From an uncultured bacterium (GTDB lineage Bacteria; JAHJDO01), in contig CAYTGU010000006.1 of NCBI GenBank assembly GCA_964437505.1, forward strand, positions 5,400 through 69,399: 64,000 nt of DNA, written 5' to 3'. Under the pieces are notes generated by a model. It made no database searches. It saw nothing but the letters and a program-made list of their open reading frames with translations, and was not told the origin of the DNA. Both the position numbers and the translations under genes were made by a program. The stretch's first letter is position 1. Each line of letters begins with the position of its first letter. Below, piece by piece: positions 4,244 to 58,119 of this stretch.

Positions 4244-5302
4244 ATGCTGTTAGACAAATTAGATAGTATCAAAAAAAGGGGCAATGAACTCACTGAATTG
4301 ATGAGTGACCCTCAAGTTATAGCTAATAGGGACATGTATCAGAAGTATGCTAAGGAATATACTGATATAAAAGATATAATAAAGGAGTATGAGATATATA
4401 AGGAAATTTTGAACGACATATCAAAGAACAAGGAAATTCTCTCAAACCCCGCTGAAGAAAAAGATTTTCTGGAACTAGTTGAATCAGAGATAGCGGATTT
4501 AGGGGGCAAGAAAGACAAGGTAGAGGACAATCTTAGAACATTGCTGGATCCAGAGGCGCGCGATTGGAACAAAGATATTATTATGGAAATACGTGGTGGT
4601 GCTGGCGGAGATGAAGCTAGTCTTTTTGCTGAAGACCTATTTCGTATGTATAGCAAGTATGCTGAGAAAAAAGGGTGGAAGATTGAAATTCTCTCATCAC
4701 ATCTAAGGGAATTAGGCGGTTTTAGAGAGGTGATTTTCGCAGTAAAAGGAAAGAATGTTTATAGAAGATTGAGATTTGAGAGTGGAACGCATCGTGTTCA
4801 AAGGGTTCCTGTTACTGAGACCAGTGGTCGTATTCATACATCCACTGCTACTGTGGCAGTACTTCCTGAACCTGAAGATATTGAAGTTAAAATAAATCCG
4901 CAGGAATTAAAAATTGATACATTTAGAGCCTCAGGAGCTGGAGGTCAACATGTTAATAAAACAGACTCAGCAGTTAGAATAACCCATATACCAACGAATC
5001 TGGTTGTTGAGTGTCAGGACGAAAGGTCACAGCATAAAAACAGAGTTAAGGCAATGAGAGTATTAAGAGCCCGTTTACTGCATAAGGTGAAAAAAGATCA
5101 GCAGAAACAGATTTCTCAGGATAGAAAAAATCAGGTTGGCACAGGAGATAGAAGTGAAAAGATTCGCACGTATAATTTCTCCCAAGCACGAATTACAAAT
5201 CATCGTATAAATTTTACTTCTCATAATCTTCAGGCTTTTCTTCAAGGTGATATGGATGGATTAATAGAAGCTGAATTATCAGTGGGTTTTAAGCGAGATT
5301 GA
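4244..5302 (+). CDS. prfA: Peptide chain release factor 1
   Basis: HRVQRVPVTE (PxT), GAGGQHVN; between rpmE and prmC. Confidence 0.97.
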   Translation: MLLDKLDSIKKRGNELTELMSDPQVIANRDMYQKYAKEYTDIKDIIKEYEIYKEILNDISKNKEILSNPAEEKDFLELVESEIADLGGKKDKVEDNLRTLLDPEARDWNKDIIMEIRGGAGGDEASLFAEDLFRMYSKYAEKKGWKIEILSSHLRELGGFREVIFAVKGKNVYRRLRFESGTHRVQRVPVTETSGRIHTSTATVAVLPEPEDIEVKINPQELKIDTFRASGAGGQHVNKTDSAVRITHIPTNLVVECQDERSQHKNRVKAMRVLRARLLHKVKKDQQKQISQDRKNQVGTGDRSEKIRTYNFSQARITNHRINFTSHNLQAFLQGDMDGLIEAELSVGFKRD

Positions 5303-6165
5303 AGATTAAAGAATTAATTCTTCGCACAACAGATTATCTCACAAGGCATAATATTTCCTCTCCCCGTTTGGATGCAGAAATCTTACTGGCGTATGTCTTA
5401 AAAAAAGAAAGAATATTTCTATATCTTAATTGGGATAGCATTCTTAAAGAAGACACCCTGGACATTTTCAGGAAACTTGTTCTAAAAAGGTCGAAGCACA
5501 CACCTGTTGCATATTTAACAAGGCATAAAGAGTTTATGTCTGTTGATTTTGAAGTAAATGAAAAGGTATTGATTCCCAGGCCTGAGACTGAAGTATTAGT
5601 TGAAGCAGTATTATCCCGAATGCTTTCGGGACAACCAAATAGAGAATGGGTAGCAATTGATATAGGAACAGGTTGTGGGAATATAGCAGTTACTCTTGCC
5701 AAAAATCAGAATATCAGGATCTATGCTTCGGACATCTCAGAAGATGCATTGAACATCTCCATGAGAAATGCCAAAAACAGGAGAGTAGAGAAGTCAATAA
5801 GATTTCTTTGCGGAGACTTGTTCAAGGCATTTAATGGTCTCAACCTTGATAAAAAGATTGATTTTATTGTATCCAATCCTCCTTATGTTTCTTCAGCGGA
5901 TTTTGAAAAATTACCTATTGATATAAAGCAATTTGAACCTAGGATTGCTCTTGACGGTGGAGTTAGAGGTATGGATTTTTATCCTGAACTAATTAAAGGC
6001 GCAGCGGAATTTTTAAAACCACATGGATTTCTTCTTATGGAAATAGGATATGGACAGGTTGAAGAGGTTAAAAAACTTGTTTCCTTAAGTAAAGCATTCT
6101 TAGAGCCCAAAATTGTTATGGATTATGGGGGAATTGAGAGAGTAGTTATCTGCACGCGTTCTTGA
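5299..6165 (+). CDS. prmC: Release factor glutamine methyltransferase HemK/PrmC
   Basis: VLIPRPETE, DIGTGCG, SNPPY, EP..ALDGG; TTG start overlaps the prfA stop. Confidence 0.95.
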   Translation: MKIKELILRTTDYLTRHNISSPRLDAEILLAYVLKKERIFLYLNWDSILKEDTLDIFRKLVLKRSKHTPVAYLTRHKEFMSVDFEVNEKVLIPRPETEVLVEAVLSRMLSGQPNREWVAIDIGTGCGNIAVTLAKNQNIRIYASDISEDALNISMRNAKNRRVEKSIRFLCGDLFKAFNGLNLDKKIDFIVSNPPYVSSADFEKLPIDIKQFEPRIALDGGVRGMDFYPELIKGAAEFLKPHGFLLMEIGYGQVEEVKKLVSLSKAFLEPKIVMDYGGIERVVICTRS

Positions 6166-13452: not shown

Positions 13453-14569
13453 AGCATTTTCTCTGTTTTCACAAATTGCATATCTATTTATATTAACCGG
13501 GTTAGCTGTTTTTCTTATATACGTTGCTGTGATTGTATGGAAAGCTCCCATTCTTCGACACAGGGATTTTTTTATTGCAATTATCTTCTTTTCTCTGGGC
13601 TTGATTACCTTTGCCTACATATGGAAGATTATTCTTCAGCCGATATATAAGGGATTACGGACTACAGCTTTGAACAGTGGGTTTAAACCCACTGTTCAGG
13701 ACAATAGCCTGCAACCACTTATTAGCTCAAGGGAACAACTTAAAAAATGGTCTCAGGAATTGGAAAAAAGAGTAGAGGAGAGAACAGCAGAGCTAAAGAA
13801 ACTCAATAAGGAATTACTTGATACAGAGTTTGAGCTTATGGAAAGAGACAAGCTCTCTTCGATGGGAGAGATATCGGCAAAACTGGCGCATGAAATCAAG
13901 AATCCTCTGGCAATTATTAATAATGCGGCGTTTTTTCTCAAAAATGTCTTTAAGAAACCTGATCCTGAAGTATCAGAGCAAGTTGGAATTCTTTTTCAGG
14001 AAACAGATCGTATTAATAGGCTTATTGCTGATTTACTTCAGTTTTCCAGAATTTCGGTATCCAAGGATAAGGATGTGGACATGATTGATGTTAATGTGGT
14101 GCTTGATAATGCTATCATGTCTTTTGAATCTGTAGTGGCTGTCCTTACAATAGAGAAAAAATACGCTATAAGATTACCAAAAGTAAGAGCCAATTCGGAT
14201 CAGTTGAAACAGGTATTTTTGAATATAATTTCCAATGCTTATCAAGCTATGGAAAGCAGAGGACAGAGCACAGATGGCAGACTTACGGTACATACAGATG
14301 TTATAGAAGAGGCAGAAATAAAAATTATTTTCACTGATACAGGTTGCGGGATTGCGCCTGAGAATTTGCAGGAAATATTTACACCGTTTTTTTCGACAAA
14401 AGAGCCGGGAAAGGGGACAGGACTTGGTCTTTACATCTGTAAGTCCTTAATAAAAAGTCTTAATGGAGATATCTCTGTTCAATCTGAAGTTGGAAAGGGA
14501 ACTAGTTTTACCGTTAGTTTGCCAGTGAGAAAAACCGCACACACTTGGAAGGGAAAAGCACAAACTTAG
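13436..14569 (+). CDS. Membrane sensor histidine kinase (PilS-like position)
   Basis: Two N-terminal TMs; AHEIKNPL, QVFLNII.NA, DTGCGI, FTPFFSTK, GTGLGL. Confidence 0.92.
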   Translation: MESKDKAFSLFSQIAYLFILTGLAVFLIYVAVIVWKAPILRHRDFFIAIIFFSLGLITFAYIWKIILQPIYKGLRTTALNSGFKPTVQDNSLQPLISSREQLKKWSQELEKRVEERTAELKKLNKELLDTEFELMERDKLSSMGEISAKLAHEIKNPLAIINNAAFFLKNVFKKPDPEVSEQVGILFQETDRINRLIADLLQFSRISVSKDKDVDMIDVNVVLDNAIMSFESVVAVLTIEKKYAIRLPKVRANSDQLKQVFLNIISNAYQAMESRGQSTDGRLTVHTDVIEEAEIKIIFTDTGCGIAPENLQEIFTPFFSTKEPGKGTGLGLYICKSLIKSLNGDISVQSEVGKGTSFTVSLPVRKTAHTWKGKAQT

Positions 14570-14593
14570 GATTAAGTAGTAAGGATTAGGGGG

Positions 14594-14610
14594 TTGGCAT
14601 AAATGTTGCT
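14594..14610 (+). promoter_or_regulatory. sigma54 -24/-12 promoter of the pilin cluster
   Basis: TTGGCATAAATGTTGCT: GG (14596-7), 10 nt, GC (14608-9); 31 bp before the first pilin ATG and directly after a sigma54 activator/kinase pair. Confidence 0.8.
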
Positions 14611-14641
14611 TTATAGTAATATAGAAGAAAGGGAGGTGGAA

Positions 14642-14989
14642 ATGAAATTTAAAAAAGGATTTACACTTATTGAGCTTTTGGTTGTAATAGCGATTATTAC
14701 ATTGCTTGCTTCAATAGCAGTGCCCAATTATCTTAAACAGCTTGAGAAGACCAAGGTTGGAAAGGCAACAGCAGACATAATGCTCTTGAGAAAAAGCGTT
14801 GACTTGTTCAGAGCTAATCATGAAGGAACCCTTCCTGAGAGTCTTGGTGTTCTTGTGTCGGAGAAATATCTAAGCAAAGCAGTTCCTACTGATCCATGGG
14901 GAGGAAGCTATTCATATGTATCAACAGCCAGCAGTTACACAATAACTGATGGAAGCAGTAAGGGCATATCAGAGACGATTAATTTTTAA
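14642..14989 (+). CDS. GspG-like prepilin 1
   Basis: MKFKKG|FTLIELLVVIAII, DPWG; strong RBS GGGAGGTGG before ATG 14642 (track start 14603 is too early). Confidence 0.9.
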   Translation: MKFKKGFTLIELLVVIAIITLLASIAVPNYLKQLEKTKVGKATADIMLLRKSVDLFRANHEGTLPESLGVLVSEKYLSKAVPTDPWGGSYSYVSTASSYTITDGSSKGISETINF

Positions 14990-15000
14990 AGGAGGAGAAG

Positions 15001-15498
15001 ATGAGGAAAAGGACAGGATTTACACTTATTGAGCTTCTGGTCGTAATAGGCATCATTGTGCTTCTTGCAGGTATTGTAATGCCTAACTTCATGAAGCAGA
15101 TTGACAAGGCGAAGAAAACACGCGCAAGAGCGGACATTCACAGTGTTGAGAACGCTTTGGCAATGTATCAGACTGATTGGGGAACATATCCAGGTGATGG
15201 CATAGTAAATAGTGGAAGTGCAGATTTATCTGGTGATCCAGATGATAATATTACTGGAGCTGGTGAATTAAAAGATATGTTACAAACAGCTGGGACAAAT
15301 GGACGCGGACCATATCTTTCAAAGGATATTCCAAATGATCCTTATGGGACAGTATATAAATATAGAGCTTCGGGAGGCACTTCAACTGATTATACTAATC
15401 CGCTTAAAGAACGCAGTTATGACCTCTGGTCGTATGGTAAGGATAAGGCTGATGGCGGGGACGATGACATAGCGTGTTGGGATACTGGGACAAACTAA
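15001..15498 (+). CDS. GspG-like prepilin 2
   Basis: MRKRTG|FTLIELLVVIGII, YQTDWGTYP, DPYG..YKY, LWSYGKD...GG.DDI. Confidence 0.9.
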   Translation: MRKRTGFTLIELLVVIGIIVLLAGIVMPNFMKQIDKAKKTRARADIHSVENALAMYQTDWGTYPGDGIVNSGSADLSGDPDDNITGAGELKDMLQTAGTNGRGPYLSKDIPNDPYGTVYKYRASGGTSTDYTNPLKERSYDLWSYGKDKADGGDDDIACWDTGTN

Positions 15499-15500
15499 GA

Positions 15501-16067
15501 ATGAAGACGACAGACGACAGACCACAGACGACAGACCACGGTAAAAAACTATGGTCTAAAGTAGGTTTCACCGCTGTTGAGCTTATGATAGTGCTTGCAA
15601 TCATGGGTATTATGCTTGTTGCAGCAGTACCATCATTTGTCCAATTCACAAGAAATTCCAGGATTAAGAGCGGAGCGCAGATGGTTGTTTCCGCTCTTAG
15701 AACTGCGCGCAGTTATGCAATAACAAAAAGAAAAAACTGCATGGTCATTGTAGATACCACAATGAATGCAGTAAAGATCTATGAGAACGATACAGGAACA
15801 CTGAGTAACTGGAAAGTAATGCCAAAGACGATTGTAATTAGTCATGAAATTTCATCCGGATATCATCTTAATGTACCGTATCCTGACGATTCAGCGGCGG
15901 CAAGTGGAAGTTATACGTCAAAACCTACAGTCAAATTCAAACCAACAGGAGGAGCGACTATTGGTGGCACAATTCAGGTTAGTGATGACGATAAGACAAA
16001 TCCTGATACATCCTATATTACATGGACAAACATTACAGGTCGTGTGAGGACATCGCGTACGCCATGA
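15501..16067 (+). CDS. GspH/FimT-like minor pilin with repeat-encoded leader
   Basis: MKTTDDRPQTTDHGKKLWSKVG|FTAVELMIVLAI; L..ARSYAI..R; F.PTG, TGRV at the C-terminus. Confidence 0.85.
   Translation: MKTTDDRPQTTDHGKKLWSKVGFTAVELMIVLAIMGIMLVAAVPSFVQFTRNSRIKSGAQMVVSALRTARSYAITKRKNCMVIVDTTMNAVKIYENDTGTLSNWKVMPKTIVISHEISSGYHLNVPYPDDSAAASGSYTSKPTVKFKPTGGATIGGTIQVSDDDKTNPDTSYITWTNITGRVRTSRTP
15506..15557. repeat. Heptamer array plus one inverted unit inside the pilin leader
   Basis: GACGACA GACGACA GACCACA GACGACA GACCACG, then GTAAAAAAC TATGGTC T. Confidence 0.85.
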
Positions 16068-16083
16068 TAAGGGGACATAAAGA

Positions 16084-16539
16084 ATGTTTAGGATTTTGAG
16101 AATTAGAATTTTGAATTTGTTTCGGATTTGCTCTACTCGCGCTTTCAGCCTTCTTGAACTTGTTATTTCAATGGCTATTCTGTCTATCGCGCTTCTCGGA
16201 CTTATTCAAATGTTCCCTGTAGGTCTCAGGGCAAGCAAGCATGCAGGAGACTACACAATGATGACATTTCTTGGTCAGCAAAAAATGAGTGATATTGAGC
16301 AGAATAAATATGAAGATAATGAGTATATGAATGCCAATGATGTTAGTGATATTGATACGTCTTCGTCCTTGACTACTTCAGATCATTTTTTTGCTTCTCC
16401 AAATGAGAGTTTTTCATGGAGTTGCGTGGTTTCGACTCATAATGATATAGATAATTTGTATCACGCTACTTTAGCTATATACTGTAATGATAGAGGCGAT
16501 ACCAGAATTGAGGAATTTGTAACGAGTTATGTTAAGTGA
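16084..16539 (+). CDS. GspI/PilV-like minor pilin
   Basis: MFRILRIRILNLFRICSTRA|FSLLELVISMAILSIALLGL. Confidence 0.82.
   Translation: MFRILRIRILNLFRICSTRAFSLLELVISMAILSIALLGLIQMFPVGLRASKHAGDYTMMTFLGQQKMSDIEQNKYEDNEYMNANDVSDIDTSSSLTTSDHFFASPNESFSWSCVVSTHNDIDNLYHATLAIYCNDRGDTRIEEFVTSYVK
16087..16129 (-). repeat. Inverted copy of the 1572-type arm inside the pilin leader
   Basis: Reverse complement AAATCCGAAACAAATTCAAA matches 1593-1612 AAATACGAAACAATATCAAA at 17/20. Confidence 0.6.
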
Positions 16540-17260
16540 AATAAAAACAGACGACAGACGACAGACCACAGTAAAAAACCATGGTCCATGGTCTATTGTC
16601 CATGGTCTAAAAGGTAGTTCTGCTTTCACATTGATCGAAATGATGATCACAACAGCAGTTTTGGCTTTATTGATAACAGGCATTTATTCTGTTTTTAAAG
16701 GTGGTACCGATTCATGGACAAAGGGTAATGTAAGAATGGAGCGGTATCAGAACGCAAGAGCAATTCTGGGGATGATGTCAAGAGAGATCTCCTGCGCAAT
16801 GGTTAATGAGGCGAGAAAGATATATATGCTGGGAATAAATGACGATGGCACTCGGATAAAAACAGGCAGTAGCAGGGATGAACTGTTTTTTATTGCTCCT
16901 GTACACGAAACCAGTAGTTTGGGAACTGACGAGTCTGATATGTGTGAAATAGGCTACTGGACAAGAGGAGATACCGAGATTATGCGCCATTATACAGCTT
17001 CATCTGTGGATTTTGTTTATAAAAGTGGAGATAATAGCGATTCGCTTGGCGTAAAAGCAACAGATCTTCAATTTTATTATTACTATGACAATAATGATGC
17101 GGATTCTCAGGTAAACTGGGGTTCTAATGATTCGGATGCAGATACCTATTTATATACTTTGCCAAAAAAGATAACAATAGTTCTCAAAACAAGAGATGAA
17201 GAAGCGAGAGAAGATACTCAGACCTTTGAGACCACTGTATTTATGCCGGGAGCGGAATGA
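16529..17260 (+). CDS. GspJ/PilW-like minor pilin with repeat-encoded leader
   Basis: MLSEIKTDDRRQTTVKNHGPWSIVHGLKGSSA|FTLIEMMIT; AR.IL.MMSREIS.A. Confidence 0.85.
   Translation: MLSEIKTDDRRQTTVKNHGPWSIVHGLKGSSAFTLIEMMITTAVLALLITGIYSVFKGGTDSWTKGNVRMERYQNARAILGMMSREISCAMVNEARKIYMLGINDDGTRIKTGSSRDELFFIAPVHETSSLGTDESDMCEIGYWTRGDTEIMRHYTASSVDFVYKSGDNSDSLGVKATDLQFYYYYDNNDADSQVNWGSNDSDADTYLYTLPKKITIVLKTRDEEAREDTQTFETTVFMPGAE
16550..16608. repeat. Heptamer inverted-repeat hairpin inside the pilin leader
   Basis: GACGACA GACGACA GACCACA GTAAAAAAC CATGGTC CATGGTC TATTGTC CATGGTC T. Confidence 0.85.
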
Positions 17261-20211
17261 AAATCAAAAATCAATCTGGTATTGCTCTAATAATAGTTGT
17301 CTCCATTATGGCTGTTCTTGCCTCTATTGCTGCTGCTTTTTCATACAGCATGATAATGGACCAGCGCGCAGCAGCCAATTATATGAACGGGATAAAAGCG
17401 GACTATGTTGCAAAAGCAGGCATTCAGCACGCAATTGGCGTTCTAAAGAAGGATGGTGACCCGTCCAATAACGAATCAGGTGATTACTGTATGTATGAAG
17501 GATATGACTGGTATGGTGATGACTGGGGATATGATAGCACTTTGTTTGGAGGAGATACTGGTGGCGATGATTCAAATATAGATAACGATAGCTCTACTCT
17601 GACTCAGACTTCTGGATGTGGCAGTGGTTATGATTCTCGATGGGTATATCTGACAGATTCACAGGGGAAACTGATTGGAAGATACGCTGTTCTGGTTATT
17701 GATGAATCTGGCAAGGTAAATATAAATAGCGCAGGCGCAGGGCTCACATATGGGAACGAAGGCTGGACAACTGCTGAGATAAATCTTGGGCAGGTTTGCA
17801 GCGATATACTCTCCGATCAATCAAAGGCAGCAGATATCTTAAATATAATATACGGAACAGACGGTTGTTCCGGAATTGCTGATCATGATGACAATGCTGA
17901 CAGTGTCATCCTTAATAATGACGGAATAGATAATGATGGAGATGGAACAGCTGACGAAGGAGATGAGGGAGTAGATGATTCCGCAGAGTTTTATATTGCC
18001 AGGCCATACACTGCTTCCAGCGGTCTAAACGCTGATACGCCTTTTGTAACGATTGGGGAAGTCGTGTCTCTTGCCGGATTGAACAATTCAGATTATCAGT
18101 CATTATCTCCATATATCACAGCTTTTTCCTCTGACAAAAACCTCACGGATTCAGGGTTGGCACGGCTGAATATCAACGCTGTAAGCTCTGCAATGGAGTT
18201 GTATTCAGCTCTAAGGGATGCCTGCGAATATTGGGAAGGGACAGCAGCCTACTCAACAGCAGAGCTTGCTCAGATGGCAGTGAACATAATTGACTACAGA
18301 GACCGCGATAACGGCTCAACGCGAATTGATGTTGAAGATGATGCCGGCACTGTATTTACCCGATACGGCGTTGAAGGCATAAGAATAAATGAGGTAATGG
18401 TAAGGCCTGTGTTTAGGGAGGAAGCACCGGATCCACCCGACAGTAATGAGGGTACTGGCCTTGGATGGGAAGCACCTAATTGGACAAGTTCAGCTGTTGA
18501 TGATAGTGGTATATGGTCTTGGTCTAGTATTCCTGACGGCACATATAAAGTAAAAATTTATGGTTCAGGAAATGTGGATTACTGGATATATCCCAAGGTT
18601 AACGATTCGTGGTCAGGTGTGCATACAAAGGATTTACCTGATATCTCAACAGCAGATACAGTAATAATATCTGGTGGCGCAGGTGTATTTATGCTCAATG
18701 TTCGGGCTAATAATGATGATGATTACTGGTACCGTATTGAACTCTCCCAATCCCCTGACTGCGAGTATGTTGAGCTTGTAAATATTTCCGAAAATGCAAT
18801 TACAATGGACGGATGGCATCTGGAATTTCCAAATGGCCAGGTCGGCACTATTCCAAGCGGGACAAGTATCGCAAGAGGAGATACAGTGGTTCTTGCTATA
18901 GATAAAGACGATACATACGACAATGATGGCATCTGGCAGAATAATGCGGCAAATGGCATCTCTCTTCAAAAGTCAGTTAGCGATGGTCTTTTGGATTCTA
19001 CAACAGGCAAGTTTGATATAAACCAAGTCTATCAGCTCTCTTTTACGAATACGATTGAGGATGATATCCTCTGTGATACGGTTTTAGTAGATAGTCCTCT
19101 GCGTCTTTATGACGGACCCATCGCGCCAACCTCAGGCAATCCCGCGGGCCATATTGTTGATCAGGTTCTATGGGATAGTTCAATAATACAGGATAATGAT
19201 TTTCTCTCTATGGAAAGGAATGACCCGACTTATATGGGAGTAGATGAATTAAATGATTCAGGCATCTTTGACAGCTGGCTTATATGTGCAGATTCGGACA
19301 GAGGAACTCCAACATACGAAAACAACAATAATTCTCCAACTGTAAATATTAAGGTAAAAAACTCTCCATTTGCAAACATAGGGGAGATAGCGGATGTATC
19401 ATTCAGCGGAGAGGAATGGGTGAACATAGGAAATAGTTCACATGGTGAAAATATAATAAGGAATATTGCAGACAGGATCACTGTCTCAGGAAGACGGCTT
19501 GATGCGGAGTTTGGGGTCCATACAGGTTCAAACTGGGACTCTTCTCCAGAGGTAATACCAACATCAGAGGTAGCGCGTTCTACAAATCCCGGAGATCTTT
19601 ACTGGTTCAAGGCAACCGCTTCAGCAAGTTCAACAGAGGACACATGGACATGGTACACAACAATAGACAGATTTGAGGCAGATACATACATCATGTACGT
19701 TTACGGAAGAGAAGGCGGGACAATGAGAGTGAGAGTAGGCAATGATACTGCAATTATTACTCCAAGCTCAGATTATGGTGCTAGGTTTGGGCAGGTTGTT
19801 ATATCAGATACTACTTTGAATGTCGCTCTTCTGTCTCCAGATGTTAGTTCAGACTCAACATACTTTGATTATATTCTCCTTACACCAGCGTCAAAGACTT
19901 ATGGAAGATTGAATATAAATACAGCTGGCTATACTGTTCTTCAGTCACTTAAGGGAATAGGGACTGATACAGCAGAGAAGATTACGGCTGATACTCCATT
20001 TCGTAGTATTGGGGAGCTTGTTACTGCTCCAACAGCATCTATAGGAACTACGAATTTCCAACCAATTTCAAATCTCATTACAACAAAATCCAATGTATTC
20101 AAGATAATCTGCACAGGCCAGTCAATTCTGGATAAGAATGGTGACGGGACTTTTGATACAGACGACGAGGTGCTCGGGGAGAGGAAGATCACAGTTATTT
20201 ATGAGAGATAA
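17257..20211 (+). CDS. Very large GspK/PilX-like minor pilin (984 aa)
   Basis: MKIKNQSG|IALIIVVSIMAVL (no Glu5, typical of the K/X class); DESGKVNINSA, RLNINA, lamin-tail-like RINEVM...EYVELVN, HhH-like GRLNINTA...LQSLKGIG. Confidence 0.8.
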   Translation: MKIKNQSGIALIIVVSIMAVLASIAAAFSYSMIMDQRAAANYMNGIKADYVAKAGIQHAIGVLKKDGDPSNNESGDYCMYEGYDWYGDDWGYDSTLFGGDTGGDDSNIDNDSSTLTQTSGCGSGYDSRWVYLTDSQGKLIGRYAVLVIDESGKVNINSAGAGLTYGNEGWTTAEINLGQVCSDILSDQSKAADILNIIYGTDGCSGIADHDDNADSVILNNDGIDNDGDGTADEGDEGVDDSAEFYIARPYTASSGLNADTPFVTIGEVVSLAGLNNSDYQSLSPYITAFSSDKNLTDSGLARLNINAVSSAMELYSALRDACEYWEGTAAYSTAELAQMAVNIIDYRDRDNGSTRIDVEDDAGTVFTRYGVEGIRINEVMVRPVFREEAPDPPDSNEGTGLGWEAPNWTSSAVDDSGIWSWSSIPDGTYKVKIYGSGNVDYWIYPKVNDSWSGVHTKDLPDISTADTVIISGGAGVFMLNVRANNDDDYWYRIELSQSPDCEYVELVNISENAITMDGWHLEFPNGQVGTIPSGTSIARGDTVVLAIDKDDTYDNDGIWQNNAANGISLQKSVSDGLLDSTTGKFDINQVYQLSFTNTIEDDILCDTVLVDSPLRLYDGPIAPTSGNPAGHIVDQVLWDSSIIQDNDFLSMERNDPTYMGVDELNDSGIFDSWLICADSDRGTPTYENNNNSPTVNIKVKNSPFANIGEIADVSFSGEEWVNIGNSSHGENIIRNIADRITVSGRRLDAEFGVHTGSNWDSSPEVIPTSEVARSTNPGDLYWFKATASASSTEDTWTWYTTIDRFEADTYIMYVYGREGGTMRVRVGNDTAIITPSSDYGARFGQVVISDTTLNVALLSPDVSSDSTYFDYILLTPASKTYGRLNINTAGYTVLQSLKGIGTDTAEKITADTPFRSIGELVTAPTASIGTTNFQPISNLITTKSNVFKIICTGQSILDKNGDGTFDTDDEVLGERKITVIYER

Positions 20212-20220
20212 TGGGAAAAC

Positions 20221-20686
20221 AATTTCTAATTTCCAATTTTAAATTATTAATCAAGTCTTTAATGCTTTAATTTTTAATTATGAATTATGATCTAGAAGAA
20301 AGAACAGCGAAATTTGGGGAAAAGATTATTATGCTTTCGAAAAAAATTCCTCAAAGTACAATAACTTCGCCTATTACTTCTCAATTGATAAGATCAGGCA
20401 CAAGTCCTGGAGCAAACTACTGCGAAGCAACAGGTGCAAGTTCAAAGAAAGACTTTAAAAACAAGATACATATTTGTAAAAAAGAAATTCAAGAGACAAA
20501 GTACTGGTTAAGAATGCTGACGATAGCTTATCCTGAGGTTAAAGGTGAAGCAAGAAAATTATGGAAAGAAGCGCAGGAGTTAACATTGATATTTGCAAAG
20601 ATTATCTCAACTCTGGATAAGAGAAAATAAATAGAAATTATAAAATTAGTAATTGATTGAAAATTAGAAATTTAAAATTAATAATT
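20221..20686. other. Four-helix-bundle cassette bounded by 34-bp imperfect inverted heptamer arms
   Basis: Left 20221-20254 AATTTCT AATTTCC AATTTTA AATTATT AATCAA; reverse complement of right 20653-20686 AATTATT AATTTTA AATTTCT AATTTTC AATCAA (26/34 identical, though very AT-rich). Confidence 0.65.
20280..20630 (+). CDS. Four helix bundle protein (23S rRNA IVP / bAvd-like, TIGR02436 type)
   Basis: YDLEERT.KF, SQLIRSGTSPGANYCEA..A.SKKDF.NKI.ICKKE..ET.YWL, EA.EL..IF. Confidence 0.9.
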   Translation: MNYDLEERTAKFGEKIIMLSKKIPQSTITSPITSQLIRSGTSPGANYCEATGASSKKDFKNKIHICKKEIQETKYWLRMLTIAYPEVKGEARKLWKEAQELTLIFAKIISTLDKRK

Positions 20687-20718
20687 CATGTGTAGGGTTA
20701 CGGGTTTTGGAGTTTAGT

Positions 20719-21808
20719 ATGGATCAGTTAAAACACAGATTAAATGTATTGAGAAAGAACCTGGATCACGCAAAGGTGTATCTTTGACTACTCCAAGAAG
20801 ATTGAAGAAATAAAGCAGTTAGAAGAAGAGACTTCAAAGCCGGACTTCTGGACAGATAACAAAAAAGCCACAGGTATCATAAAACAGATCAAAATCCTAA
20901 AAGATATTATCACGCCTCTTAATAACCTTGTCAAAGAAACAAATAATGCGTTAGAACTGGTTGAGCTCGCTTTGTCAGAGAAGGATAACTCAATCTCTTC
21001 TGAAATTGCCGCAGAGCTTGAGAAGCTGGAAGAAGAGTATAAAAGTTTTGAATTAAAATTAACTTTAAGCGGAGAGTATGACGGAAATAATGCTATTATG
21101 ACCATTCATTCAGGCGCAGGAGGAACAGAAGCGTGCGATTGGGTAGAGATGCTGCTGAAAATGTATGTCAAGTGGGCGGAGAAAAGAGGTTTTAAAACGG
21201 AAATCGCAGATATTCTGGCTGGTGAAGAAGCTGGTATAAAAACCGTGACAATTATGATTAAGGGTGATTATGCGTACGGCTATCTGCGTTCTGAAATAGG
21301 TGTACACAGACTTGTAAGAATATCTCCGTTTGATGCGAATAAAAGAAGACATACCTCATTCTGTTCAGTTGATGTGATTGCAGAAGTGGAGGACGAGGCT
21401 GATGTTGAGATCAAGGAAGATGACCTGAGAATTGATACTTACCGCGCAAGCGGTCATGGAGGACAGCATATCAATACCACTGACTCTGCTGTGCGTATAA
21501 CACATCTGCCTACAGGCATAGTTACTCAATGTCAGAATGAACGCTCTCAGCTCAAAAACAAGTCAACGGCAATGAAGGTTCTGAAAGCCAGGCTGGTTGA
21601 ACACCGCATGCGAAAGAAGGAAGAAGAGATGCAGAAATACAATAAAGATAAGAAGAAGATAGAATGGGGCTCCCAGATTCGTTCTTATGTATTTCAGCCG
21701 TATACACTTGTTAAGGATCATAGGACAGGCGCTGAAGTAGGAAATATTCAGGCGGTCATGGATGGGGATATAGACAAGTTTATAGAAGCATTCTTAAAGA
21801 TAAAGTAG
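20719..21808 (+). CDS. prfB: Peptide chain release factor 2, +1 programmed frameshift (about 362 aa)
   Basis: ORF1 from ATG 20719 to CTT TGA C (20782-20788); the +1 frame from GAC 20786 runs into the track ORF at 20972; VRISPFD (SPF) and GGQ present. Confidence 0.95.
20773..20788 (+). promoter_or_regulatory. prfB autoregulatory frameshift site
   Basis: Internal SD-like AGGTG, TAT, then CTT TGA C. Confidence 0.93.
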
Positions 21809-55432: not shown

Positions 55433-56290
55433 ATGAAAAACACAAAACAGGTTAGTAAATTTGTTATTTACAATTTATTACTTGTTGCTGTTTTCTTACC
55501 ACTGTTCACTTGCTCTGCCTTTGCGGAGAGCAGTGCAGGTGTAGTGAAAAAGGCTAATAAGCTGTATAAAAACAAAAAATACGACGAGGCGTTAAAGGAA
55601 TACGACAGGGCATTAACAAAATCTCCGGATTCTGCAGTTGTGAATTTCGATATAGGCGCAGCTCAGTATAAAAAAGGTGATTTTGAGAAGGCGCTTGGCT
55701 CCTTTACAAAAGCATTAATATCAGAAGACGGGAAACTTGAATCTAAGACAAATTACAATATTGGAAACAGTAAATATAAACAGGGGGTACTTAAGGAAAA
55801 TACCGATCTGTCTTCTGCTATAAGTTTATTAAAAGACTCGCTTGCCTATTATAAGAGAGTGATAGAACTGGATGAAAAGAATAAGGATGCTAAATTCAAT
55901 CATAGATTTGTGGAAAAGAAACTAAAAGAATTGTTGGATAAACAGAAAAAACAGCAAAAACAAGACGATAAAGAAGATAAAGAGAAAAACCAGAAGGATA
56001 AGCAAGAACAGCAAAAGCAGAATAAGCAGCAATCCGAAAATAAAAAGCAAAAGAGCAAAGAAGAAAAAGAGTCTGGTTCTAATAATGAGAAAAGAAAGCA
56101 AGAACAAACAGGAAAGGAACAGAAACAGGGCAGTGAATCTCAAAAACAAAAAGCTGAAAAGTCTAAAGAAATGTCTGAGAAGGAAGCAAAGATGCTTTTA
56201 GAGGGGTACAGGCATGAAGAGGAATTAAAAGATAAACTCAAAAAAATAAAACAACAGGGTCATTATCCTGAAGTGTTAAAGGACTGGTGA
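55433..56290 (+). CDS. batC: TPR protein BatC with Q/K/E-rich linker
   Basis: TPRs (A...Y..AL, YN.GN..Y), low-complexity region, C-terminal KDW. Confidence 0.82.
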   Translation: MKNTKQVSKFVIYNLLLVAVFLPLFTCSAFAESSAGVVKKANKLYKNKKYDEALKEYDRALTKSPDSAVVNFDIGAAQYKKGDFEKALGSFTKALISEDGKLESKTNYNIGNSKYKQGVLKENTDLSSAISLLKDSLAYYKRVIELDEKNKDAKFNHRFVEKKLKELLDKQKKQQKQDDKEDKEKNQKDKQEQQKQNKQQSENKKQKSKEEKESGSNNEKRKQEQTGKEQKQGSESQKQKAEKSKEMSEKEAKMLLEGYRHEEELKDKLKKIKQQGHYPEVLKDW

Positions 56291-58119
56291 TGGAACAGAG
56301 AACAGAGAACAGATCACAGATCACAAGTCTTAAATTAAGGGCTAATTTGCTTTTTGTTTTTTTGTCTGTCGTCTATTGTCTATCGTCTGTTATCTGCTTT
56401 GCAAAGGATATAAGATTTGAAGCTTCTGTTGACAGAAACAAGGTTTCTTTGGGCAGCGCTATCACTCTCAATCTTACTTTTTACGGCACTCGGGGTATGT
56501 CTGCGCCAAAACTTCCTAAAATAGATGGATTTCAATCCCGATATAAAGGACCTTCAACAAGAATGTCGATGGTCAACGGAAAGGTTTCCAGTTCGATAAC
56601 ACATATATATACGCTTATTCCTATGCGTGTCGGAAAATTCAGAATTGGTCCTTTATCGTTCAAATATAAGAAAAAGTCTTATACTTCGAAAGAGATAACT
56701 ATTGAGGTTGTAGAGAGCGATGTTAATGAGCCTGAGGGGACGCAGTCCCTTTCCAGAAAAGCATCTTTGGGCGATAATGTTTTTTTAAAGATGTATGTTC
56801 CGAAGCAGGATGTATATTTAAACCAGATTGTTCCCTTAACCATAAAACTGTATGTCACGAGACTTACACTAAGAGATATAGAATATCCGGTATTTTCGCA
56901 TAACGGCTTCTCAGTAGACAAGTTTGCCAAGCCGGCGCAATACAGGGAAATTTTAAACGGCAAGGAATATGAGGTAATAGAATTCAAAACAAATATTTTC
57001 GGGATAAGGACAGCTAAACTGGCGTTAGGACCTGCGCAGCTTAAATGCAATCTACTTGTTAATCGGAGAAGACAGAGAAACTATTCTATGTTTGATAGCT
57101 TTTTTGGAGAGAGAGAGATTTATCCTCTGAGTTTAAAGTCTAAGGAGATCCAAATAACGGTCAATGATCTTCCTGAAGAGGGGAAGCCTGAAGGTTTCAG
57201 CGGAGCTGTTGGAGACTTTACGTTTGATTTAAAAGCTGAGCCAAAAGAAGTTAATGTCGGGGATCCGATCACACTGAAGATGGTTATAAAAGGCAGAGGC
57301 AATTTCGCGACAGTAACCTGCCCAAAACTTGACTCTAACCAGCACTTCAAGATTTATGATCCTGAAGTAAAACAAGAAGATGGAGTAAAAACATTTGAGC
57401 AGATATTAATGCCTGATACAGATACTGTAAAAGAAATCCCCGAAATTACATTCAGCTGTTTTGACACAGAAAGAAAGGCTTACCGCACAATATCAAAAGG
57501 GCCTGTTCCAATAAAAGTAACAAAATCTAAGAAGGAAGATGGGTTAAGAATAGTAGAGTCTTCTCAAACTGCTCTGAGGTATGTTAAAAGGGAAACATTA
57601 GGCAGAGATATTGTATATATTAAGGATGAACCTGGTAAACTGATAAGAAAACAGACGTATCTTTACAAAAACAGGACGTTTTTGGCCGTTCAGATACTGC
57701 CGTTTATTATATTTATATTGCTGTCTGTTATTCACAAACGAACTGAAAAATTGAGAACAGATCTGCGATATGCTCGGAATTTGCGCGCATACAAAAAGGC
57801 GAAACGCGGAATTAAGAAAGCAAAGCATCTTCTTAGCAGTGAAAAGACACAGGAATTTTATGATTGCATATTAAAAACATTAAAGGAATATCTGGGGAAT
57901 AAACTGCATATTACCCATGGTGGAATAACCTCGGATATTGTTGACGGAGTTTTAAGACATAAAGCAATAAATAAAGAGGTATTAAAAACTTTGGATGATA
58001 TTTTTAAGGAGTGCGATATTACAAGATACGCTCTTTTGGAACGCAGCAGTAAAGAAACGAATAGCCTCTTTTGGAAAGTCAAAAAAGTTATTAAGCTTCT
58101 GGAGAAAGAAAGACTATGA
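56287..58119 (+). CDS. batD: BatD family protein
   Basis: ASVDR..V.LG, S.VNG, P.F.GAVG.F, .G.GN, F..YDP; position in the Bat operon. Confidence 0.85.
   Translation: MMEQRTENRSQITSLKLRANLLFVFLSVVYCLSSVICFAKDIRFEASVDRNKVSLGSAITLNLTFYGTRGMSAPKLPKIDGFQSRYKGPSTRMSMVNGKVSSSITHIYTLIPMRVGKFRIGPLSFKYKKKSYTSKEITIEVVESDVNEPEGTQSLSRKASLGDNVFLKMYVPKQDVYLNQIVPLTIKLYVTRLTLRDIEYPVFSHNGFSVDKFAKPAQYREILNGKEYEVIEFKTNIFGIRTAKLALGPAQLKCNLLVNRRRQRNYSMFDSFFGEREIYPLSLKSKEIQITVNDLPEEGKPEGFSGAVGDFTFDLKAEPKEVNVGDPITLKMVIKGRGNFATVTCPKLDSNQHFKIYDPEVKQEDGVKTFEQILMPDTDTVKEIPEITFSCFDTERKAYRTISKGPVPIKVTKSKKEDGLRIVESSQTALRYVKRETLGRDIVYIKDEPGKLIRKQTYLYKNRTFLAVQILPFIIFILLSVIHKRTEKLRTDLRYARNLRAYKKAKRGIKKAKHLLSSEKTQEFYDCILKTLKEYLGNKLHITHGGITSDIVDGVLRHKAINKEVLKTLDDIFKECDITRYALLERSSKETNSLFWKVKKVIKLLEKERL
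56293..56396. repeat. Heptamer inverted-repeat pair inside the BatD signal peptide
   Basis: GAACAGA x3, TCACAGA, TCACAAG ... TCTGTCG TCTATTG TCTATCG TCTGTTA TCTG; the right arm's reverse complement contains GACGACAGA as in the pilin leaders. Confidence 0.75.

Follow-up and report, generated by a model that had tools for sequence, protein, structure and literature searches.

Heptamer repeats in the leader-coding stretches of two minor pseudopilin genes of an uncultured bacterium

The pilin operon and its two leader repeats

Here we describe two copies of a palindromic element, built of 7-nt units (heptamers), that lie in the leader-coding stretches of two minor pseudopilin genes. The genes are found in a 64,000-nucleotide stretch of DNA from an uncultured bacterium (GenBank assembly GCA_964437505.1, contig CAYTGU010000006.1, positions 5,400 to 69,399 of the forward strand). 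This stretch at its full length is called the window, positions are counted from its first letter, a slash within a peptide marks the predicted cleavage site, and handles beginning with L denote sequences compared with the window. The pilin operon comprises the following features:

14595..14610, + strand: sigma54-type promoter TGGCATAAATGTTGCT, before the pilin operon and the sole match to TGGCAY-N5-TTGCW in the window
14603..14989, + strand: gspG-like major pseudopilin gene 1 (gspG1; Pfam N_methyl and T2SSG)
15001..15498, + strand: gspG-like major pseudopilin gene 2 (gspG2; Pfam T2SSG, E 3.9e-18), with a short leader of the probably ancestral type, MRKRTG/FTLIE
15501..16067, + strand: gspH-like minor pseudopilin gene, 188 aa (PF12019 GspH, E 3.1e-5; N_methyl)
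15506..15560, + strand: heptamer element copy 1, inside the 22-aa gspH leader; identical in L001-L004, L137 and L140
16084..16539, + strand: gspI-like minor pseudopilin gene (N_methyl), with the 20-aa leader MFRILRIRILNLFRICSTRA/FSLLE (16084-16143)
16529..17260, + strand: gspJ-like minor pseudopilin gene, 243 aa (Pfam N_methyl only), its ATG overlapping the end of gspI
16550..16611, + strand: heptamer element copy 2, inside the 32-aa gspJ leader; identical in L001, L139 and L141
17257..20211, + strand: gspK-like large minor pilin gene, 984 aa (Pfam LTD, HHH_3 and a weak T2SSK_1st), with the short leader MKIKNQSG/IALI

Immediately 5' of the operon lie genes for a sigma54-dependent response regulator (activator) and a histidine kinase, and three ATPases of the T2SSE family and one T2SSF platform protein are also encoded upstream. 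The sigma54 promoter upstream of gspG1 is conserved in all orthologous loci. The first major pseudopilin probably starts at an internal ATG at 14642, preceded by a Shine-Dalgarno (SD)-like ggaggtggaa, and not at 14603, giving MKFKKG/FTLIE. The length of 188 aa for the gspH-like protein was also obtained by independent gene callers in four samples. Gene order, together with a PF11612 T2SSJ match in orthologues (one of them weak), suggests that the product of 16529-17260 is GspJ. Because the start codons of gspH and gspJ adjoin or overlap upstream stops (the gspH ATG follows the gspG2 stop by 2 nt, and the gspJ ATG overlaps the last gspI codons), translation of the pilin genes is probably coupled.

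Direct reading of both leaders agrees to the base with the unit counts, shared spacer and TAAA given in a preliminary description of this DNA, and places both repeats, as had been claimed there, in frame between the start codon and the prepilin cleavage site. Copy 1 consists of five direct units of the form GACSACA, a spacer, one inverted unit and TAAA. The ATG at 15501 and two further bases, AA, precede the direct units (15506-15540: GACGACA GACGACA GACCACA GACGACA GACCACG), after which come the spacer GTAAAAAAC (15541-15549), the inverted unit TATGGTC (15550-15556), TAAAGTAGGT and the mature Phe codon TTC at 15567; the gspH leader of 66 nt (15501-15566) encodes the 22 residues MKTTDDRPQTTDHGKKLWSKVG/FTAVELM. 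Copy 2 has three direct units, the same 9-nt spacer, four inverted units and TAAA. Here the ATG at 16529 and TTAAGTGAAATAAAAACA are followed by GACGACA GACGACA GACCACA (16550-16570), GTAAAAAAC (16571-16579), the inverted units CATGGTC CATGGTC TATTGTC CATGGTC (16580-16607), TAAAAGGTAGTTCTGCT and the mature Phe codon TTC at 16625, in a gspJ leader of 96 nt and 32 aa (16529-16624). Copy 2 also contains three ATGs, at 16581, 16588 and 16602, none of which shares the frame of 16529, again as first described. PF07963 N_methyl matches both proteins, at G/FTAVE (15567) and A/FTLIE (16625), although their leaders of 22 and 32 aa depart from the short basic leader (about 5-8 residues) of pseudopilins.

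Tandem 7-nt units occur at multiple loci and are over-represented relative to chance. The two-unit pattern GACSACAGACSACA has six matches against 0.00 expected, Tandem Repeats Finder (TRF) reports period-7 arrays at both copies, and the spacer with the first inverted unit occurs just twice in the 64 kb, at copies 1 and 2. The arrays are short and imperfect, with 3-5 imperfect units and no more than two identical units in a row in the window (four in L139). The word hairpin is apt for them only in part, the structure being modest: RNA folding z-scores were -1.3 for copy 1 and -0.6 for copy 2, and ranged from +0.9 to -3.1 across ten orthologous copies. Since these scores are weak and inconsistent, we do not take a conserved structured RNA as the main explanation, and an Rfam search of 14000-21200 at E<=1 matched no family.

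Reading frame and stability of the repeats

No in-frame ATG, GTG or TTG lies between the repeat and the cleavage site of either gspH or gspJ. A start codon downstream of the element is likewise absent in about a dozen other cases, so that a functional pilin can arise only by reading through the element, and all leader regions inspected have an in-frame start upstream and no stop. Judged by the codons available, read-through of the repeats as leader is obligatory in gspH and gspJ of the window. The preliminary description had held that the repeats are translated within prepilin leaders, and the orthologues, which keep frame through every variant, bear this out. Across genes the element is read in all three frames (GKKLWS, VKNHGPWS, RKKPWSMV); the unit of homology is therefore the DNA and not the peptide, and a non-conserved peptide would fit a segment that is discarded with the leader.

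It might be argued that the repeats are untranslated, either because the true starts lie downstream or because the genes are pseudogenes inactivated by insertion. The leaders are indeed much longer than is usual for pilins of the type II secretion system (T2SS) or of type IVa (T4a), a good SD is absent before the ATG of gspH and of gspJ, proximal starts leave the element intercistronic in some orthologues (MLG or MLA in gspJ of L130 and L134), and L125 and L129 have an in-frame ATG in the inverted arm. Yet the window offers no in-frame ATG, GTG or TTG after the repeats, a later start would cost G-1, F+1 and E+5, and frame and open reading are kept across species. Nor do the genes look like pseudogenes: across 29 GspJ-like homologues the mature parts are 60-100% identical (67-82% in near-full-length orthologues), and no inspected orthologue has a disrupted frame. 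We regard untranslated repeats as extremely unlikely.

A non-triplet tract at this position also raises the question of phase variation. According to the preliminary description, gain or loss of one 7-nt unit could act as a switch, with slipped-strand events frameshifting the leader and reversibly turning gspH or gspJ off. There is precedent for non-triplet repeats in the leader-coding regions of surface proteins: in Neisseria opa, a CTCTT repeat in this region forms a simple sequence repeat (SSR) contingency locus. The window elements resemble such loci (Neisseria opa; Haemophilus influenzae, PMC2651432) in that a tandem repeat, with a unit of 7 nt that is not divisible by three, stands after the start codon and ahead of the sequence for the mature surface protein. 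Moreover, unit numbers vary between species, and heterogeneity might be why the Logan contig L002 stops at 16541, at the edge of copy 2. The likeness ends there, however, since contingency tracts are long and perfect and differ as ON/OFF length alleles between or within strains, documented heptanucleotide switches having 8-38 perfect units (PMC2651432), whereas the window tracts are short, imperfect and invariant in length among assemblies.

Indeed, among seven same-species assemblies from different samples (98.5-100% identity) there was no change in unit number, the sole difference being the substitution C15523G in L139. The gspH element of L137 is base-identical to that of the window although its flanks are only about 77% identical. 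That of L129 has accumulated many substitutions, but its five direct units and single inverted unit are all retained, which argues that slippage is not faster than point mutation. No OFF allele was found in any leader region inspected across eleven orthologous operons. The assemblies thus show no unit-number variant across strains, the outcome that the preliminary description had itself named as speaking against a switch, and no OFF allele, and we consider the proposed switch very unlikely.

Leaders as a place for dispersed repeats

To place the two copies in context, the DNA before each mature N-terminus was compared in eleven orthologous operons. The orthologous operons (L125-L136) are syntenic, in the order response regulator, histidine kinase, gspG, gspG, gspH, gspI, gspJ, gspK, prfB, with the full gene set in all eleven longer ones. 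The leaders of the 29 GspJ-like homologues are unrelated to one another, unlike the mature parts, and run from MLG/FTLIE up to 44 residues. Short leaders are found for each type of protein, namely MKFKKG/F and MRKRTG/F in the two GspG, MANKRMSG/F in GspH, MKNRA/F in GspI, MLG/F in GspJ and MKIKNQSG/I in GspK, and such leaders of 3-8 aa are probably the ancestral state.

Elsewhere the leader positions are filled by small repeats that fall into at least five families. The GACNACA hairpin of the window is found in the gspH, gspI, gspJ and gspK leaders of L129, and in L130 it lies in the major pilin gene gspG2, right after a strong SD and an ATG that are the same as in the gspG2 of the window, which has a short leader. 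A second family is an AT-rich AAATTCAAAATT array followed by a GC hairpin; a third, of the TTTGAGAATTAGAATTTT/GGATTTCGGATTT type, also builds the 20-aa gspI leader of the window; a fourth is a CCCCCTTTGAAGGGGG hairpin carrying its own ATG; and a fifth is a GAGGG-rich palindrome. Repeat elements are held by the gspK leaders of the L129 and L125 orthologues too, and the element copies of the orthologues, in six different pilin genes, are all in frame. These comparisons show the leader-coding stretch of every pilin gene in the operon to be a hot spot for small repeat elements. Because the same leader positions hold varied repeats in other genomes, the window copies are one instance of a general habit of the lineage, and not a peculiarity of two genes.

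The lengths of the gspJ leaders point in the same direction as the absence of OFF alleles. They amount to 96 nt in the window, L125 and L129, 75 nt in L127 and 63 nt in L135. The window leader has one direct unit less than that of L129 and 7 extra nt (AAAAGGT) in its tail, while exactly three inverted units are absent from that of L127, so that differences in unit number are multiples of 21 nt or are offset by a second 7-nt change. Such frame-preserving combinations are what purifying selection on a translated tract would predict.

Several smaller observations concern these leaders. The gspI leader of the window is itself repeat-derived, with an AT-rich repeat at 16091-16127; the leader contains the AT-rich GGATTTTGAGAATTAGAATTTTGAATTTG and a duplicated TGTTTMGGATTTG, its 20 aa compare with 5 aa in L130, L133 and L134 (MKNRA/F or MRNRA/F), and in-frame TTG codons could yield a 9-aa leader. 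The same type of AT-rich repeat occurs in the leaders of gspK (L125), gspH (L132) and gspJ (L131, P0026), and in a pilin leader of L135. Also in L135, at about 2520-2590, the gspH orthologue has a hairpin of about 54 nt (CCGTTTAGAGAT...ATCTCTAACGG) in frame just after MSG/FT, with GGTTTCAC duplicated on both sides, resembling an insertion of miniature inverted-repeat transposable element (MITE) type with a target-site duplication in the cleavage motif. Between gspI and gspJ, an CCCCCTTTGAAGGGGGATTCAGGGGGATGTT element (L130 3440-3510; L134 3430-3510) ends in its own G-rich stretch and an ATG that is apparently the gspJ start (MLG/F), and further copies lie before gspG1 and prfB.

The heptamer family is not confined to pilin genes, as two further features of the window illustrate:

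56290..56403, + strand: third heptamer-family member, encoding the BatD N-terminus with its signal peptide (direct arm at 56293-56327, inverted arm at 56362-56396)
20220..20690, + strand: element with a gene (20280-20630) for a 23S_rRNA_IVP (S23p/bAvd-like four-helix-bundle) protein, PF05635, E 1.2e-14

The BatD element has a direct arm of GAGAACA/GATCACA units and an inverted arm of TGTCGTC/TATTGTC/TATCGTC units, and is translated as MEQRTENRSQITSLKLRANLLFVFLSVVYCLSSVICFA/KD, a Sec signal peptide in which the direct arm supplies the polar start MEQRTENRSQIT and the inverted arm the hydrophobic core LSVVYCLSSVICFA. BatD orthologues that are 78-85% identical have unrelated signal peptides, some visibly derived from AT-rich heptamer palindromes; the named relatives of this BatD are nearly all labelled Candidatus Omnitrophota, so that a member of that phylum is the most likely source of the window. 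All three window copies of the family therefore sit at the 5' ends of open reading frames (ORFs). Beyond the window, (GACNACA)x3 arrays were found in more than 120 contigs from Bacteroidota, Chloroflexota, Cyanobacteria, Omnitrophota, Planctomycetota and others. Only 9 of 128 such arrays lie at ORF 5' ends in sense (15 in antisense), and 81 are outside long ORFs; the arrays are mostly intergenic, and general targeting of start codons by them was rejected. When metagenomes were scanned with the element core GACCACRGTAAAAAACYATGGTC, L137 was the one contig recovered and no further alleles came to light.

The element at 20220-20690 has inverted AT-rich heptamer arms (20220-20277 and about 20640-20690) and is an insertion, being absent at this site in L125, L127 and L130. 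An S23p-family gene between inverted heptamer arms is found at other intergenic sites as well (L131 700-1200, L135 1050-1550), in L099 the arms of such a gene are GACNACA/TGTNGTC, and heptamer arms with no gene between them lie in the gspK-prfB spacers of L131 and L132. With no ORF and a loop of 9 nt, the pilin copies lack the stem enclosing a PF05635 ORF that defines an S23p-type intervening sequence (IVS), but they may be gene-less relatives of the S23p-carrying elements. Four-helix-bundle genes as general companions of the arrays were considered and rejected: a crude motif was present at 2 of 120 loci, the link being occasional.

Taken together, these observations make it probable that the two copies are stably in-frame, tolerated and selection-filtered insertions of a dispersed repeat, which extend a cleavable leader and do not form an on/off switch. 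The element begins with GAYNACA heptamers in a row, passes through an A-rich loop of 9 nt and continues with a series of YATGGTC heptamers that are roughly complementary to the first; its copies lie just 3' of pseudopilin start codons in a tightly packed, probably translationally coupled and sigma54-driven operon. With the genes so coupled, an insertion would survive only if it brought its own start or, when placed after the ATG, contained no stop and kept the frame, and the copies now visible would be the survivors of this filter. Insertion would have taken class III (prepilin) leaders of 3-8 aa to 22 aa in gspH and 32 aa in gspJ. Prepilin peptidase presumably removes the extra peptide with the leader, which would leave its sequence unconstrained and the insert neutral. 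Unit numbers might then drift slowly by slippage or recombination between copies, with only frame-preserving changes retained.

Several points weigh against this explanation. We infer both translation across the repeat and cleavage of the long leader from sequence, a crude motif scan found no prepilin peptidase (peptidase A24) in the window, and an in-frame ATT at 16595 may serve as a rare start. The pilin elements have the inverted arms of a MITE, but filled and empty sites (gspG2 in L130 and the window, gspH in the window and L130) gave no convincing target-site duplication, and no transposase partner for the element was seen. Finally, the striking concentration in pilin leaders, together with the identity of the L137 element despite diverged flanks, could mean that the insert has been selected for a function.

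One such function would be that of a regulatory RNA, in which the hairpin, or the unstructured A/C-rich direct arm, tunes translation of the minor pilins or processing of the messenger, for instance as a putative RNase III site like those in 23S IVS stems, and so sets a low ratio of minor to major pilins. On the polycistronic sigma54 transcript the elements coincide exactly with the starts of cistrons, the pairing of their arms relies on G.U wobble (GACGA with UGGUC), which is workable in sense RNA alone, and the L137 element is more conserved than its flanks. In addition, heptamer-flanked S23p genes occur in the same genomes, and the Coxiella IVS has GACAGAT heptamers at an RNase III site. 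This has to be set against the weak and inconsistent folding scores noted above, the loss of the hairpin in L135 and L136, and a pairing of only about 6 bp in copy 1. The same element is found in a major pilin gene (L130 gspG2) and in BatD, sequence-unrelated elements fill the same positions, and Rfam gave no match. We therefore think a regulatory RNA unlikely.

Recombination between the copies

The shared repeats had also been put forward as recombination points for swapping minor-pilin cassettes. Candidate deletion contigs lend some substance to the first part of this proposal, while nothing seen suggests cassette swapping as a function. In L138 (ERZ27315627 k141_148460), window 15213-15527 is fused to 16549-18140 through a shared 23 nt, AGACGACAGACGACAGACCACAG, a junction that corresponds to a 1044-bp deletion removing gspH and gspI, and in L137 (JGI Ga0075121_1064978) gspI is missing and the leader fused to gspJ looks like a chimera of gspI-type and gspJ-type repeats. 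Both are short, low-coverage contigs, however, so that they may be real deletion variants or misjoins made by the assembler across the repeat; the sample of L138 also gives an intact gspH-gspI segment (L142, a separate 851-nt contig). The L138 junction, moreover, leaves gspJ out of frame (MKTTDDRPQ, then a stop), a loss and not a swap.

The operon is mosaic between strains: the identity of L136 to the window is 95% as far as about 16314, but from 16387 onwards it falls to about 75%. This change marks the one unambiguous recombination boundary, and it lies inside gspI and not at a repeat, where a mosaic breakpoint was sought. Given also the completeness of the eleven longer operons, the idea that direct repeats in adjacent pilin leaders serve as a substrate for deleting or reshuffling the intervening minor-pilin genes is possible but rather doubtful.

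Relation to known repeats

Several components of this picture are already documented. Heptamers are over-represented in bacteria and cluster next to start codons (PMC4679880, PMC4692102), TAACTGA repeats being found in Beggiatoaceae, Cyanobacteria and Bacteroidetes (PMC4679880) and GGGAATC in Xanthomonas (PMC4692102), and palindromic repeats within ORFs are likewise known. The present element shares with such heptanucleotide repeats (the cyanobacterial short tandemly repeated repetitive (STRR) sequences, TAACTGA and GGGAATC) a 7-nt unit in 2-6 mostly imperfect copies per site, many sites per genome, a tendency to cluster at start codons or beside them, a scattered presence among phyla, some inverted pairs and an occasional overlap with ORF ends. 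Those repeats, however, are described as intergenic or as part of the 5' untranslated region, and forward TAACTGA has stops in all frames, whereas the direct arm described here has an inverted partner arm, is stop-free in every frame and can only be translated, as an N-terminal export leader.

In Rickettsia felis, 85 of 728 palindromic elements (Rickettsia palindromic elements, RPE) lie within ORFs (PMC1166351). Like RPE, the present elements are small, dispersed palindromic repeats that enter both non-coding DNA and ORFs, and those within ORFs preserve the frame. Ogata and colleagues are said to have found, in 2000, that RPE copies in ORFs stay in frame too. In contrast to the heptamer elements, RPE measure about 100-150 bp, are not built of heptamers, are unrelated in sequence and host phylum, and insert within mature proteins, while the window elements are in a cleaved leader or signal peptide.

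The IVS of Coxiella burnetii 23S rRNA carries two to three strain-variable tandem GACAGAT heptamers at an RNase III site, before S23p (PMC4990558). GACAGAT is one base from a cyclic permutation of GACGACA, and arm-flanked S23p-family genes (PF05635) like the IVS ORF occur at window 20220-20690 and in L131, L135 and L099; the pilin copies differ in their 9-nt loop, the lack of an ORF and their place outside rRNA and inside coding sequence. A broader idea is conceivable, in which heptamer palindromes of an IVS-like family, complete with an S23p/bAvd-type four-helix-bundle gene in the loop when full-length, spread in Omnitrophota and other phyla, rewriting prepilin leaders and Sec signal peptides and aiding the deletion and reshuffling of pilin genes. 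A copy landing after a start codon would supply a ready-made export sequence, its A/C-rich arm encoding the polar n-region and its T/G-rich arm the hydrophobic h-region. We put this forward as speculation and believe it improbable; were it true, new export signals and rearranged pilin operons would both originate from palindromic repeats, in an uncultured and possibly predatory phylum in which surface filaments are central to lifestyle (PMC10066038).

Long leaders as such are not foreign to pilins. Type IVb pilins have leaders of 15-30 aa that are processed by prepilin peptidase, so that length alone need not prevent processing. Theirs, however, are conserved within the family, whereas those described here are lineage-specific repeat insertions in short leaders of the T2SS/T4a-like type. 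In the literature we found no description of a heptamer palindrome that repeatedly occupies cleaved pilin leaders and signal peptides and is kept in frame by translational coupling.

If insertion of a tolerated repeat into a cleaved leader is the right explanation, selfish or slippage-derived repeats can live cost-free in coding DNA when they encode a segment of the protein that is later removed, and translational coupling would force inserts in such leaders into frame. For annotators, very long and odd prepilin leaders or signal peptides in metagenome-assembled genomes of Omnitrophota, and in similarly repeat-rich genomes, would be best read as repeat-derived, and short repeats common to adjacent genes can generate deletion contigs. 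Elsewhere in the window, prfB (RF2; 20719-21808) carries at 20782-20788 the sequence CTTTGAC, the classical site of +1 frameshifting, and prfA and prmC are located at 4244-6165.

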